Shown: in pieces, positions 4,942 to 13,914 of the stretch | How the letters are laid out: each line of letters opens with the position of its first letter | Position numbering within the stretch: position 1 is the stretch's first letter | Source: a virus | Length of the DNA: 22,377 nucleotides | Virus genome (UHGV): UHGV-0172060 | Strand: one strand, 5' to 3' | Notes under the pieces: generated by a model | Seen by the model: only the letters and a program-made list of their open reading frames with translations | Databases searched by the model: none | Told to the model about the DNA's origin: nothing | Program-made: the position numbers and the translations under genes

Positions 4942-5634
4942 TTAATTGTGTCGCTTAAGGGTTTGTGACTGACTGATTAAGACCTTTCCAAAGACCATAA
5001 ACCGGTGTTCGTTTTCGCTGGTAATTCCCCATTCGCGGTAAATCTGATTATCAGAAATTACCAGCAGTTTATCAGGTATCATTTGCAGTCGTTTGACGTA
5101 AATTTTATCATCAAAACCAAATACATATATACCATCCCCATCAAACTGATTGATACTGATATCAACGAAGATGAGATCTCCTGGCTCAATGGTTGGACAC
5201 ATACTGTCCCCACGAACGTTGATAACTTTAATGTGATTTGCTGGTCGTCCACCAAACATCGATACAGCATTATCAGTTCTGTATTCAATGGCATGAATCA
5301 CATCAATGACATCACCGCCCTGGATAAGGCCATTTCCCGCACTGGCACTGACATCCAGCATTTCAATACGGAATACATCCTTCACCTGCGCAACATCCTC
5401 ACTAATACTGTTTTTACATACAGTATTACTTTTGAGGTCTGAGGTAAAGAGATCAGCAATATCAACACCTAAGCTCCTGGCAATATTACTCAGGGCTTGT
5501 TCAGTGAATTGTTTCTGCTTACCTGTTTCGAGGCGCGAGATATTCGCCGCATCCACTCCTATTGCTTCAGCGAGATCGGCGATTTTCATGTTCTTCGCCT
5601 GGCGAAGTTGTCTGACTCGATTTCCTATGTTCAT
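4942..5634 (-). CDS. cI-like prophage repressor (XRE HTH + S24 LexA-like peptidase domain)
   Basis: N-terminal HTH (RQLRQAKNMKIADLAEAIGVDAANISRLETGK); C-terminal S24 signatures (GDSMCPTI serine, VKRL lysine); divergent from a cro-like gene. Confidence 0.9.
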   Translation of the reverse strand: MNIGNRVRQLRQAKNMKIADLAEAIGVDAANISRLETGKQKQFTEQALSNIARSLGVDIADLFTSDLKSNTVCKNSISEDVAQVKDVFRIEMLDVSASAGNGLIQGGDVIDVIHAIEYRTDNAVSMFGGRPANHIKVINVRGDSMCPTIEPGDLIFVDISINQFDGDGIYVFGFDDKIYVKRLQMIPDKLLVISDNQIYREWGITSENEHRFMVFGKVLISQSQTLKRHN

Positions 5635-5992: not shown

Positions 5993-6536
5993 GCATCATT
6001 GGAAAGTGGAAAAACAACCTGAGTGGTACGTGAAAGCTGTCAGAAAAACTATCGCGGCATTGCCAGGGGGTTACGCTGAAGCTGCTGACTGGCTGGATGT
6101 AACAGAGAACGCTTTATTCAACCGCCTTCGTGCAGATGGCGATCAGATTTTCCCGTTGGGATGGGCAATGGTTTTACAGCGTGCTGCTGGCAATCACCAC
6201 ATTGCGGATGCTGTCGCACAGTCTGCTGGTGGGGTGTTTGTATCACTTCCTGAAATTGAGGAAGTAGAGAACGCCGATATCAACCAGCGCCTGCTGGAGG
6301 TCATTGAACAGATCGGCAGTTATTCCAGACAGATTCGTTCAGCAATTGAAGACGGGGTGGTGGAACCACACGAGCAGGCAGCAATTAACGACGAGCTGTA
6401 CATGTCAATTTCGAAGCTGCAGGAGCATGCAGCACTGGTCTACAAAATCTTTTGCGCTCCAGAAAAGAGTGACGCCCGCGAGTGTGCAGCTCCGGGCGCC
6501 GTGGCGTTTTGTGTCTGTGGAGAAACTAACGCATGA
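5985..6536 (+). CDS. CII-like/YdaT-family early regulatory protein (putative)
   Basis: 183-aa ORF with GTG start and AGGAGG SD, overlapping the end of cro; its position after cro matches the CII/YdaT slot of lambdoid and Rac-type prophages. Family assignment tentative. Confidence 0.5.
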
Positions 6537-6871
6537 ACAGTTTAACAACACACTACCGTCGCTCGCAACTGATTGCGCTTCCTGTACCGGGTGGAAAAGC
6601 GAAGGTGGAGTATTGCTATGCAGTGAATGTACCAGGTGACAGGGAAATTGTAACCCACAGCTTTGCAGAGTGGGCTGTGGGTGATTTCAACCGGCAGAAG
6701 GAGACAGTCCTTTGCGACAAGTTAACCGCTGGTTCAAAGATCACTACGGAGTGCCCGTCAGAGTCATTCGTTGGGAGCCGGAAACACAACGGGTTATCTA
6801 CCTCCGTGAAGGCTATGAACATGAATGCTTCAGTCCGCTCGAACAGTTTCGTCGTAAATTCAGGGAAATAG
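6533..6871 (+). CDS. hypothetical protein (ORF A; N-terminal half looks protein-like, C-terminal half looks out of frame)
   Basis: ATGA-coupled start at 6533, ends 9 nt before the O-like start; the C-terminal ~50 aa are Ser/Asn-rich and overlap a better-looking ORF in another frame. Confidence 0.35.
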
Positions 6872-6924
6872 AGGTCGGTCATGAGCCTGTTAATGACATC
6901 CCAGCCCATTGTGATAAATCGTGA
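6712..6924 (+). CDS. hypothetical small protein (ORF B, GYEHEC-motif protein)
   Basis: TTG start with near-ideal SD (AAGGAGA, 7-nt spacer); protein-like composition ([33 protein letters not shown]); overlaps ORF A and the O-like start. Confidence 0.45.
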
Positions 6925-7873
6925 TCTTGCATGCCGTATTGGTCTGAATGAGGCAATTGTGTTGCAGCAGCTTCATTACTGGCTGAATGAAACGAATTCA
7001 GGCACTGAGCATGGCGGAATTCGCTGGGTTTATAACACGACAGAACAGTGGCTGGAGCAGTTTCCGTTCTGGTCAGAGTCCACTCTGAAACGCACATTTG
7101 CAAGCCTGAAATCACTTGGGGTTTTGCGTCGCGAGCAACTCAATAAATCGAAGCGTGACATGACCAACTTCTACACGATCAACTATGAAAGTGAGCTTTT
7201 AGAAGAGGTCAAAGTGAACGAATCGATCAGGTCAAAATGCACTTCTCCATCGGGTCAAAGTGACCTGATGGATGGGCGCAAAATGACACGATCCATTGGT
7301 TCAAAACGACACGCTGTCATCGGGTCAAAATGGCCCAATGATCTTACAGAGAATACAACAGAGATTACTACAGAGAATAAAACCTCTTCTCGTCCGGACG
7401 CTTCGCAACCGGACACGCAAACGGCTGAACAGGAGTTTTTTACTCGCCATCCTGATGCGGTTGTATTCAGCCCTAAAAAGCGCCAGTGGGGAACGCAGGA
7501 TGATTTGACCTGCGCACAGTGGCTCTGGAAAAAAATCATCGCCCTGTACGAGCAGGCCGCCGAATGTGACGGCGAGGTGGTTCGTCCCAAAGAACCGAAC
7601 TGGACAGCCTGGGCAAACGAAATTCGCCTGATGTGTGTGCAGGATGGTCGTACTCACAAACAAATCTGCGAGATGTACAGCCGCGTCAGCCGCGATCCGT
7701 TCTGGTGCCGTAACGTGCTCAGCCCGTCGAAGTTGCGGGAAAAATGGGATGAGCTTTCCCTGCGCTTATCGCCGTCCGTCAGCACGCACACAGAAAAACG
7801 TGAAGACCCGTACTTCAAAGCCAGTTACGACAACGTGGACTACAGCCAGATCCCGGCAGGATTCAGGGGGTGA
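6881..7873 (+). CDS. replication initiator protein (lambda O-like) with origin iterons embedded in the coding sequence
   Basis: N-terminal DNA-binding-like region ([26 protein letters not shown]); central low-complexity linker encoded by direct repeats; GAGGT SD. Confidence 0.7.
   Translation: MSLLMTSQPIVINRDLACRIGLNEAIVLQQLHYWLNETNSGTEHGGIRWVYNTTEQWLEQFPFWSESTLKRTFASLKSLGVLRREQLNKSKRDMTNFYTINYESELLEEVKVNESIRSKCTSPSGQSDLMDGRKMTRSIGSKRHAVIGSKWPNDLTENTTEITTENKTSSRPDASQPDTQTAEQEFFTRHPDAVVFSPKKRQWGTQDDLTCAQWLWKKIIALYEQAAECDGEVVRPKEPNWTAWANEIRLMCVQDGRTHKQICEMYSRVSRDPFWCRNVLSPSKLREKWDELSLRLSPSVSTHTEKREDPYFKASYDNVDYSQIPAGFRG
7205..7390. repeat. candidate replication origin: about five iterons at ~23-bp spacing plus three 12-bp ACAGAGA A-rich repeats
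   Basis: Iterons (a/g)TC(g/a)GGTCAAA(a/g)TG centred near 7210, 7233, 7256, 7302, 7326; then ACAGAGAATACA / ACAGAGATTACT / ACAGAGAATAAA at 7346, 7358, 7370. Confidence 0.65.
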
Positions 7874-7875
7874 TC

Positions 7876-8364
7876 ATGAGTCTTTTGAATGAAGTTCAGA
7901 AATTCATTGAAGCCCATCCGGGGTGTACTTCCGGAGACATTGCGGATGCTTTTGCAGGTTACTCACGGCAGCGCGTTCTGCAGTCAGCAAGCAAGTTACG
8001 TCAGAGTGGGCGTGTGGCTCACCGTTGTGAAGGAGATACACGCAGACATTTCCCACGCCTGACTGAGAGAGCGCAGGAGCCGGAACCACAACCAGTTCGT
8101 GAAACCAGACCTGTGCGCAATTTCTATGTCGGCACTAACGATCCCCGGGTGATTTTGTGCCTGACTCGCCAGGCGGAAGAACTGGAGTCCAGGGGCCTAT
8201 ACCGTCGTGCTGCAACGGTGTGGATGGCGGCATTCCGTGAAAGCCACTCCCAGCCAGAACGAAACAATTTTCTGGTGCGTCGTGAGCAGTGTTTACGGAA
8301 AAGCAGCAAGCGCGCTGTATCGGGTGATGAGTGGTATCTGTCAGGGAATTACGTGGGGGCTTAA
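7876..8364 (+). CDS. putative regulator with C-terminal PerC-like domain
   Basis: ATG 7876 with GGGGGTGA SD; C-terminal LTRQAEELESRGLYRRAATVWMAAFRE...VRREQCL matches the recalled PerC-family signature (LE..GL.RRAA..W...RR..CL). Confidence 0.5.
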   Translation: MSLLNEVQKFIEAHPGCTSGDIADAFAGYSRQRVLQSASKLRQSGRVAHRCEGDTRRHFPRLTERAQEPEPQPVRETRPVRNFYVGTNDPRVILCLTRQAEELESRGLYRRAATVWMAAFRESHSQPERNNFLVRREQCLRKSSKRAVSGDEWYLSGNYVGA

Positions 8365-9017
8365 TGAGTAATAAATATTGCCAGGAGCTGGTGGAACTGC
8401 GGAACAAACCAGCCCATGAACTGAAGGAAGTGGGTGATCAGTGGCGCACGCCGGACAACATTTTCTGGGGAATTAACACCCTGTTTGGCCCGTTTGTTCT
8501 GGATCTGTTCACTGACGGTGATAACGCCAAATGTACCGCGTATTACACGGCGGAAGACAACGCGCTGGCGCATGACTGGTCAGAACGCCTTGCGGAGCTT
8601 AAAGGTGCTGCCTTTGGTAATCCTCCATACAGCCGCGCCAGTCAGCATGAGGGGCAATACATCACCGGCATGCGTTACATCATGAAACATGCCAGTGCCA
8701 TGCGTGATAAGGGCGGGCGCTATGTTTTCCTGATCAAAGCTGCCACCAGCGAAGTGTGGTGGCCGGAAGATGCAGATCATATTGCTTTTATTCGCGGGCG
8801 TATTGGTTTTGAACTGCCTGTCTGGTTTATCCCGAAAGACGAGAAGCAGGTACCGACAGGAGCTTTTTTCGCTGGTGCTATTGCTGTTTTTGACAAGACC
8901 TGGAAGGGATCGGCAATCAGCTACATCGGGCGCGATGAACTTGAGGCATGTGGTGAGGCGTTTCTGGCGCAGGTTCGCCAGCAGGCGGAAAAACTGGTCA
9001 GGGAGATGGCGGCATGA
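8364..9017 (+). CDS. phage Dam-like N6-adenine DNA methyltransferase (orphan)
   Basis: FGNPPYS catalytic motif (NPPY); ~217 aa; TAATG-coupled start with GGGGG SD; no adjacent restriction endonuclease. Confidence 0.75.
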   Translation: MSNKYCQELVELRNKPAHELKEVGDQWRTPDNIFWGINTLFGPFVLDLFTDGDNAKCTAYYTAEDNALAHDWSERLAELKGAAFGNPPYSRASQHEGQYITGMRYIMKHASAMRDKGGRYVFLIKAATSEVWWPEDADHIAFIRGRIGFELPVWFIPKDEKQVPTGAFFAGAIAVFDKTWKGSAISYIGRDELEACGEAFLAQVRQQAEKLVREMAA

Positions 9018-9340
9018 CGACATTAACTCAATGCCAGCAGCAGGTGCTGGATATGCTGATTTCTTATCAGAAAGAGCGTGGCTTTCCGCCAACCAATCAG
9101 GAGGTGGCAACCATGCTGGGATACCGTTCAGTGAATGCAGCGGTGGAGCATCTTCGCGCACTGGAGAAAAAAGGCGTCATCACGATAAAGCGTGGCGTGG
9201 CCCGGGGGATAACGCTTCATACCGCGGTGAAGGACGACGACAGCGAGGCGGTCGGGATTATCCGCGCACTGCTTGCCGGTGAGGAAAACGCAAGGCTGCG
9301 TGCAACCCACTGGTTACATGAGAGGGACCTGAAAGTATGA
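9014..9340 (+). CDS. LexA N-terminal DNA-binding-domain homolog lacking the S24 peptidase domain
   Basis: Residues 1-70 align closely with the LexA DNA-binding domain (LT..QQ.V.D.I......G.PPT..E.A..LG.RS.NAA.EHL.AL..KGVI.I..G..RGI.L); the protein stops at 108 aa with no protease domain. Confidence 0.75.
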   Translation: MTTLTQCQQQVLDMLISYQKERGFPPTNQEVATMLGYRSVNAAVEHLRALEKKGVITIKRGVARGITLHTAVKDDDSEAVGIIRALLAGEENARLRATHWLHERDLKV

Positions 9341-12861: not shown

Positions 12862-13914
12862 ATGAAAAATACTGTAAAAATAAACAGTGTTGATTTAATC
12901 AACGCTGATTGCCTGCATTTTATTCAGTCCCTGCCTGATGATTCCATTGACCTGATTGTTACCGATCCGCCTTACTTCAAGGTGAAACCTAACGGTTGGG
13001 ACAATCAGTGGAAAGGGGACGAAGATTACCTTAAGTGGCTGGACCACTGTCTGGCCCAGTTCTGGCGGGTGTTGAAACCTGCCGGAAGCCTTTACCTGTT
13101 CTGTGGGCATCGCCTGGCATCTGATATTGAGATCATGATGCGTGAACGTTTCAACGTGCTTAACCATATCATCTGGGCGAAGCCGTCCGGACGTTGGAAT
13201 GGGTGTAATAAAGAAAGTCTGCGCGCATATTTTCCTGCCACAGAGCGCGTTCTGTTTGCTGAACATTACCGGGGGCCATATCGCGGCAAAAGTGACGGCT
13301 ATGCGGCAAAAGAAAGGGAACTCAAACAGCACATAATGGCACCGCTGATATCGTATTTCAGGGATGCTCGTGCCGAACTGGGTATAACGGCAAAACAAAT
13401 TGCCGAAGCCACAGGTAAGAAAAATATGGTTTCCCACTGGTTTGGTGCCAGTCAGTGGCAGTTGCCGAATGAGGCTGACTATCGGAAGTTACAGGCACTG
13501 TTTTCCCGTATAGCGGTAGAGAAGTTTCAGGAACAACAACTGGAACAACCACACCACCAGCTGGTGGCATCTTATGATTCACTGAATCGCAAATATTCTG
13601 AATTGCTGGATGAGTTTAAATCTCTCCGGCGCTATTTCTCCGTATCAGTCTCCGTGCCTTATACCGATGTCTGGACGCATAAGCCCGTTCAGTTCTACCC
13701 GGGTAAACATCCGTGCGAGAAACCGACGGATATGCTCCGGCAAATAATCAATGCCAGTAGTCGACCTGGTGATCTGGTTGCTGATTTCTTTATGGGATCC
13801 GGTTCCACAATAAAAGCAGCAATGGCGCTGGGGCGTCGGGCGTTAGGTGTTGAACTTGAGTCAGAGCGGTTTAATCAGACGGTGAAAGAGGTAAGTGAAC
13901 TGGTGGGGAAATAA
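12862..13914 (+). CDS. DNA methyltransferase, beta-class (N6-adenine or N4-cytosine), orphan
   Basis: N-terminal DPPY motif (IVTDPPYF), C-terminal AdoMet-binding motif (DFFMGSGST), i.e. beta-class motif order; 350 aa; no neighbouring endonuclease. Confidence 0.85.
   Translation: MKNTVKINSVDLINADCLHFIQSLPDDSIDLIVTDPPYFKVKPNGWDNQWKGDEDYLKWLDHCLAQFWRVLKPAGSLYLFCGHRLASDIEIMMRERFNVLNHIIWAKPSGRWNGCNKESLRAYFPATERVLFAEHYRGPYRGKSDGYAAKERELKQHIMAPLISYFRDARAELGITAKQIAEATGKKNMVSHWFGASQWQLPNEADYRKLQALFSRIAVEKFQEQQLEQPHHQLVASYDSLNRKYSELLDEFKSLRRYFSVSVSVPYTDVWTHKPVQFYPGKHPCEKPTDMLRQIINASSRPGDLVADFFMGSGSTIKAAMALGRRALGVELESERFNQTVKEVSELVGK

Follow-up and report, generated by a model that had tools for sequence, protein, structure and literature searches.

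The closest described systems to the gene analysed here are the PerC/Pch regulators and the ANR proteins and, as regards its position, the helicase loaders P of phage lambda and DnaC of the host. PerC, encoded on the EPEC plasmid pEAF, and PchA/B/C, encoded on EHEC prophages, are single-domain proteins of ~90–104 aa. Pch relieves the silencing of LEE1 by H-NS, StpA and Hha, displacing these proteins from DNA (PMC4764244). PchD and PchE, which are full-length homologues, hardly affect LEE (PMC6265319), and the PerC-like proteins of PICIs do not activate LEE1, EcCIMP1_025 repressing it (PMC11773190, citing Porter 2005). ANR proteins (Aar and its relatives) are single-domain proteins of 39–80 aa acting as anti-activators of AraC-type regulators, and are composed of three helices with a highly conserved cysteine (PMC4038620). 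The gene under study, yfdN, is itself already known and annotated. It was called "the K12 unique PerC homologue" in a study in which it was deleted as a precaution ahead of ler-lacZ assays (PMC5931665). The observation that its product is PerC-like is correct but ordinary.

The window (the whole stretch of 22,377 nucleotides from UHGV-0172060 that was analysed) is an mEp460/SfV-like lambdoid prophage, in line with the prophage setting of the original prediction. Its features are collected in Table 1. yfdN belongs to the rightward operon of early genes, with rep before it and Q further on; stops and starts there overlap or abut. A consensus scan revealed no sigma-70-like promoter on the + strand between 5500 and 12500 (3 sites in total, compared to 5.2 expected) and did not recover in the window the dam promoter that is annotated within orf40 of SfV. 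Nor did the window contain any gene for a helicase, a primase or a P- or DnaC-like protein.

Table 1. Features of the window, with the parts of YfdN given by residue number
Feature	Coordinates	Strand	Remarks
Early-left genes		-	
cI	4942-5634	-	
cro, then CP76-type cII			after cI in gene order
orf112	6533-6871		112-aa ORF between cII and rep
Replication initiator Rep	6881..7873	+	O/DnaD-like N-terminal winged helix; residues 147-294 homologous to lambda O C-domain
Shine-Dalgarno-like AGGGGG	7865..7870	+	in last rep codons, 5 nt before yfdN ATG
yfdN CDS (162 aa + TAA)	7876..8364	+	96% identity to E. coli K-12 YfdN (b2357)
YfdN N-terminal winged helix, residues 1-62	7876..8061	+	H3-13, H19-25, H31-44, beta hairpin 47-60; pI 9.8; conserved NPG motif
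YfdN disordered linker, residues 63-88	8062..8139	+	pLDDT ~50; mean column conservation 0.12, occupancy 0.55
YfdN PerC/ANR-like three-helix core, residues 89-148	8140..8319	+	Pfam match 98-151 = 8167-8328; pI 10.7
YfdN disordered C-terminal tail	8320..8361	+	conserved motif (W/C)x(L/M)(A/S)G(N/R/K/H)(Y/F)xG; residues 145-162 disordered
Dam-type N6-adenine DNA methyltransferase	8364..9017	+	ATG overlaps yfdN stop (TAATG)
LexA-DNA-binding-domain-only protein, 108 aa	9014-9340		PF01726, E 2.9e-19
RusA, KilA-N, DUF968, Q			order after LexA-domain gene
Second methylase, lysis genes, HNH, TerS, TerL, portal, protease, capsid			order after Q
Second DNA methylase, N6_N4_Mtase (PF01555)	12862-13914		between Q antiterminator and holin genes
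Portal gene, split in two frames	18260-19499		

The ORF at 7876–8364 (+) comprises 162 codons, from ATG 7876 to TAA 8362–8364. Starting instead at an in-frame GTG (7870) would yield 164 aa, as in the annotation of K-12 YfdN. ATG 7876 is more likely to be the true start, since the AGGGGG is located 5 nt upstream of it and all diverged homologues start with MSL…. Since this AGGGGG lies within the end of rep, translational coupling from rep to yfdN is implied. The identity to K-12 YfdN (b2357, on the cryptic prophage CPS-53), whose annotation is still 'uncharacterized protein', extends over all 162 residues. K-12 yfdN also has the same neighbours, yfdO (a Rep remnant) and yfdM (a methylase remnant), although these flanking genes are truncated in K-12 whereas rep and dam are intact in the window. 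Full-length identity, together with the synteny rep, yfdN, methylase, places the ORF in the YfdN orthologous group of CPS-53/SfV type. The window ORF, K-12 YfdN, SfV orf40, ST64B Sb43 and the mEp460 homologue are the same gene, with nothing of substance different between them.

yfdN DNA is present at 90–100% identity in 2668 of 5426 complete E. coli genomes (~49%), where its RefSeq label is "yfdN: PerC family transcriptional regulator". Copies with 99.4% identity are present in O157:H7 genomes. As judged by tblastn, 56 phage records carry the gene, including mEp460, SfV (orf40), SfII, SfIV, Stx2c/Stx2k phages and ST64B. Identity to the window protein is 95–99% in most of these records and 67% for ST64B Sb43. 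Salmonella phage F1055 carries a homologue at 45% identity (tblastn).

The AlphaFold2 model of YfdN, built from an alignment of 27 sequences, has a mean pLDDT of 86, with 94–98 in both domains. The N-terminal domain adopts an H-H-H-beta-beta winged-helix fold of the MarR/ArsR-like kind, with a basic recognition helix and wing; at the sequence level its matches are weak only (a MarR PHROG at 8e-5, and BilQ with 17 bits for a cut-off of 125). Beyond the linker, the three helices of the core (90–105, 109–122 and 126–143) form a TPR/MIT-like fold in which L103, R111, A112 and R136 are invariant and C139 is nearly so (96% of 27 diverse YfdN-type members). Both domains are strongly basic. The motif of the disordered tail, which is a candidate for short linear docking, is found in ~20 of the 27 diverse members. 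Sequence searches of the PDB with YfdN and Rep gave nothing meaningful, and Foldseek against BFVD and PDB returned generic winged helices only, with no match at E ≤ 1e-3.

The claim that the C-terminal ~50 aa are PerC-like stands well beyond chance. Residues 98–151 match Pfam PerC (PF06069) with 39.5 bits and E 7e-10, above the curated gathering cut-off of 22.6 bits, and cover profile positions 5–58 of 90. PHROG 1324, labelled 'transcriptional activator', matches YfdN over its full length (E 2.5e-77), and diverged two-domain relatives also pass PF06069 with 29–34 bits. However, the C-terminal third of PerC (profile positions 59–90, 'PP...MGI...FR') is absent from the YfdN-type alignment, so that the domain is incomplete. 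In contrast, a 104-aa Pch-type protein spans positions 1–89 of 90 with 149 bits; it aligns with YfdN residues 100–149 at 40% identity over 50 residues (E 2e-8). An exhaustive profile search gave 161 representative proteins of two kinds, two-domain (~140–165 aa) and core-only short (55–100 aa). In the canonical short PerC type, the shared core AE·LE·KGLYRRAA·RW…ER…RR··C is followed by a 'PP…MGI…FR' extension.

PerC and PchA/B/C thus have in common with YfdN the core AE.LE.(K/R)GLYRRAA..W...ER...RR..CL, and YfdN, like most PerC/Pch proteins, is carried on a mobile element. They differ in that PerC/Pch proteins cover the whole profile with a single domain (~90–105 aa), whereas YfdN, with 162 aa, lacks the C-terminal third and carries its own winged helix, linker and tail. 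The gene of the Pch-type comparator adjoins the phage lysis gene Rz1, while yfdN follows rep. With the ANR family, YfdN shares three helices and the conserved cysteine (C139), without any evident AraC-type partner. The NCBIfam ANR model NF033650 matched residues 96–140 (E 7e-5), and ANR membership was rejected since the 22.6 bits are below the curated cut-off of 32. As judged from sequence, YfdN is a Pfam-level PerC member that carries a PerC/ANR core in a different architecture, and not an equivalent of PerC or Pch.

The original prediction went further and suggested that the protein could be an activator of PerC/Pch type that is encoded on a prophage and acts on virulence loci of the host, LEE (ler) for instance. 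The resemblance of the core to the Pch-type protein, the nearly identical copies in O157:H7 genomes and the removal of K-12 yfdN by Uhlich et al. as a prudent step before ler-lacZ assays (PMC5931665) are consistent with this. Several observations argue against it: only profile positions 5–58 are covered, the gene is found in about half of the complete E. coli genomes, in K-12 and in Shigella and Salmonella phages, and even full-length PchD, PchE and the PICI proteins do not activate LEE1. No direct functional test of YfdN was found in the literature mentioning yfdN. K-12, Shigella and Salmonella are known to be devoid of LEE. Because yfdN is common in hosts without LEE, LEE activation is not the function under selection. 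Control of LEE virulence is unlikely as the main function of YfdN, and the virulence reading as originally put, which nothing found in this analysis backs, is most improbable; some cross-talk with LEE in an EHEC background is conceivable. The label "PerC family transcriptional regulator" should consequently not be read as virulence activator, given that YfdN has the core only, in a different architecture and mostly in LEE-less hosts.

In the window, yfdN is immediately downstream of an O-type initiator gene, whose TGA occupies 7871–7873. The same holds for the 13 diverse loci examined whose YfdN-type gene is intact: in every one, no other gene separates it from the replication initiator gene before it, and the two are at most 12 nt apart or overlap by 4 nt. 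These loci, with 26–100% identity to the window YfdN, come from Escherichia, Shigella, Salmonella, Citrobacter, Enterobacter, Leclercia, Kosakonia and Tatumella. Their initiators have an HTH_36/DnaD_N N-domain in common and three unrelated C-domains. Adjacency of rep and yfdN was also observed in 66 of the 74 assessable Rep-seeded viral contigs (IMG/VR); the two IMG/VR scans gave almost only 97–100% identical copies, informative for pairing counts but adding no new diversity.

The gene had been said to occupy the slot of lambda P. As to position this is robust, and like lambda P and host DnaC, yfdN directly follows an O-type initiator gene with translational coupling. The likeness is restricted to gene position, and functional equivalence to P is not supported. 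Lambda P has 233 aa; BLASTP with YfdN gave only an 8-residue match (E 0.21), and no ATPase/AAA+, P or DnaC-like domain was found in YfdN with Pfam, NCBIfam and PHROG. Moreover, yfdN is dispensable in related phages. In vB_EcoS-733R5, the next gene after that of a Rep with 48% identity encodes a methylase, and YfdN and P are both lacking. In phage cdtI (L184), reportedly an "inducible lambdoid prophage" according to the title of Asakura 2007, residues 27–158 are deleted. The deletion keeps the yfdN start, stop and dam junction and leaves a 30-aa remnant, MSLLNEVQKFIEAHPGCTSGDIADAF-YVGD*, ending in YfdN's own frame. The same ~395-bp deletion (window 7954–8348) is present in 7 of the 74 assessable contigs (L122, L134, L140, L147, L148, L156 and L167). 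Finally, copies of YfdN with 97–100% identity accompany Rep proteins with two unrelated bodies, 46 of the window type and 33 of the SfV type, and YfdN therefore does not co-vary with Rep. YfdN is thus not the indispensable, ever-present partner of the initiator that a loader of P/DnaC type would be, and is probably not a P substitute.

The initiator itself differs from those coupled to P. Rep residues 147–294 (window 7319–7762) align with lambda O residues 135–270 (33% identity, E 9e-27), and the C-domain of lambda O is the part that contacts P. The Rep tail ...SQIPAGFRG resembles that of the host primosomal protein DnaT, …SQIPPGFRG. Between the Rep C-terminus (~7832–7870), …NVDYSQIPAGFRG, and the C-terminus of host DnaT, …EPDSQIPPGFRG (K-12 dnaT, L019), 8 of 9 positions are identical. 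D-x-x-(I/V)P-x-GFRG ends every Rep without a following P; it is kept in all 13 Reps that precede intact YfdN-type genes, for all the differences between their three kinds of C-domain, and in those of 733R5 and cdtI. We rejected the possibility that this tail is merely the ribosome-binding site of yfdN (AGG GGG TGA) since there is synonymous variation in its codons for Ile, Pro, Gly and Arg, the last being CGA, CGC or CGG in some loci. This synonymous turnover shows selection at the protein level. O proteins that precede P (lambda, Edno5, Klebsiella ST16-OXA48phi5.1) end in …TDWIYGV(D/Q)L or …DWIDGVLE. Among homologous O-type proteins (L020–L023, a small sample), absence of P tracks with the DnaT-like tail, which, on these few sequences, looks like a modular tail swap in O-type initiators correlated with P loss.

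In K-12, dnaT is followed by dnaC, and the DnaT-like tail could plausibly give Rep its own route to the host DnaB–DnaC loading machinery, a step that we infer from the tail likeness. A 2026 preprimosome paper (PMC13377028) states that the mode of DnaB/DnaC recruitment is unknown and does not discuss the DnaT tail. The pattern of Rep tails, lambda-type with P or DnaT mimic without P, provides a testable idea for how these common prophages load the host helicase and could also probe the role of the still-unexplained DnaT tail. The finding adds little on YfdN, PerC-annotated in thousands of genomes and named as the K-12 PerC homologue in the literature; the neighbouring Rep gene with its DnaT-mimicking tail is the more interesting by-product.

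The YfdN tail, …WYLSGNYVGA (residues 149–162; family consensus LAG(R/N)(F/Y)VG), is loosely like the DnaT/Rep tail IPAGFRG. Both show the succession hydrophobic, small, Gly, aromatic, any, Gly, at or near the C-terminus. This likeness may be a coincidence.

YfdN could accordingly be thought to act in replication, bridging the O-type initiator or origin to host helicase loading (DnaB–DnaC, PriA/PriB/DnaT) or modulating this hijack, for example via its tail. Such a role would fit the adjacency to the initiator in the intact loci and viral contigs, the lack of a P-, DnaC-, helicase- or primase-like gene in those modules and in the window, the resemblance of Rep to the P-contacting part of O, the dnaT–dnaC order of K-12 and the loose similarity of a LAGRFVG-type tail to that of DnaT and Rep. 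We nevertheless consider it unlikely. YfdN has no lambda P similarity, ATPase or other replication domain; the 733R5 Rep, with its DnaT-like tail, is accompanied by neither YfdN nor P; the gene is largely deleted in cdtI and in the 7 contigs; the pairing with two Rep types shows no co-variation; and P loss correlates with the DnaT-like tail of Rep, itself a route to host helicase loading.

Proteins with a winged helix, PerC core and tail might also form a distinct family dedicated to lambdoid replication modules without P, in which they would aid or regulate primosome hijack. Here the tail that couples the O-type initiator to P, …TDWIYGVDL, would have given way to a copy of that of host DnaT, …IPxGFRG, and YfdN might, for instance, compete for, or bridge, the docking site of the new tail. 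This extended proposal appears quite doubtful to us. If it were true, the PerC core would serve mobile elements mainly in replication or in access to the nucleoid, and virulence regulation would not be its primary role.

The gene downstream of yfdN (8364–9017 and its equivalents in L013–L018 and L020) usually encodes a DNA methyltransferase, of unrelated types: Dam PF05869, D12 PF02086, C5+D12 fusions (607–727 aa) and PAPS-reductase-Dam fusions. In some loci it encodes a protein of unknown family, or there is no methylase at all. The position after yfdN appears to be a hotspot of methylase replacement.

By analogy with the C proteins of restriction-modification systems, YfdN might time or tune the downstream methyltransferase. 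The presence of at least three unrelated methyltransferase types (Dam, D12 and C5+D12 fusions) at most loci, with stops and starts overlapping or abutting, is compatible with this. However, L007 and L010 keep YfdN with no methylase after it, 733R5 has a methylase without YfdN, the cdtI-type deletion removes YfdN while preserving start and stop and thus the coupling to dam, and the region contains no promoter-like + strand site. A role as methylase controller is very unlikely in view of these cases.

The position of yfdN is equally that at which the ren/nin accessory region of lambda starts. YfdN might then be an accessory protein like lambda Ren, active in superinfection exclusion, counter-defence or host takeover through protein contacts of its TPR-like core and tail. 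Its dispensability and the combination of a TPR/MIT-like core with a conserved disordered tail motif are in keeping with this, as are over-expression phenotypes in screens. Glycogen accumulation changed on over-expression of a set of ASKA clones that comprised yfdN (PMC2853380), and a screen for filamentation enriched the UTI89_C5098-C5102 fragment, of which yfdN2 is part (PMC6206680); neither effect was specifically assigned to YfdN, and the phenotypes are unspecific. Moreover, PADLOC defence models gave no credible match for YfdN among known defence and anti-defence families. We regard such an accessory role as rather improbable.

We tentatively favour, at somewhat less than even chances, the reading that YfdN is an early protein, dispensable for the phage, that binds DNA and serves as a regulator or anti-silencer. 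Support comes from the PF06069 match and the full-length match to PHROG 1324, from the sub-threshold ANR match on the same helices, the basic character of both domains and the precedent of Pch, and from the early-operon position without a + strand promoter of its own, together with dispensability. In this view, YfdN would belong to the delayed-early proteins that lambdoid phages of the SfV/mEp460/ST64B type can do without, its translation occurring in tandem with that of the initiator on the rightward early mRNA. Its basic MarR/ArsR-like winged helix most likely binds DNA, its basic PerC/ANR-type core may target the silencing by nucleoid proteins or else a partner regulator, and the conserved disordered tail probably docks on a partner protein. 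ANR proteins, according to later work on this family, bind partner regulators and H-NS. After induction, YfdN could act at promoters of the phage, and possibly at those of the host, by locally remodelling or counteracting either nucleoid-protein silencing or a partner regulator, as an accessory transcriptional modulator rather than a replication enzyme. The domain make-up, homology, synteny and dispensability of YfdN are what the analysis shows, and DNA binding, anti-silencing and timing of expression are what we infer. Two observations weigh on the other side: the missing C-terminal third of PerC may be needed for Pch-like activity, which would count against a regulator, and the strict post-rep position across 26–100% identity could point to a replication-linked role instead.

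Some other genes of the window deserve mention. The 112-aa ORF at 6533–6871 matches no Pfam or NCBIfam family and is kept at the same position in most related loci, with 36–96% identity. The protein encoded at 9014–9340 is without the S24 peptidase domain, and its synteny is kept across most loci; as judged from its domain content, it could be an uncleavable LexA mimic binding SOS boxes. In the portal gene, the ORF at 18260–19243 corresponds to positions 2–232 of the Phage_portal profile and the overlapping ORF at 19074–19499 to positions 234–321. This split over two frames is a frameshift and thus indicates a defective prophage or a sequencing error. The second methylase gene is found after Q and before the lysis genes, the late-transcribed 'moron' position at which Stx phages carry stx.
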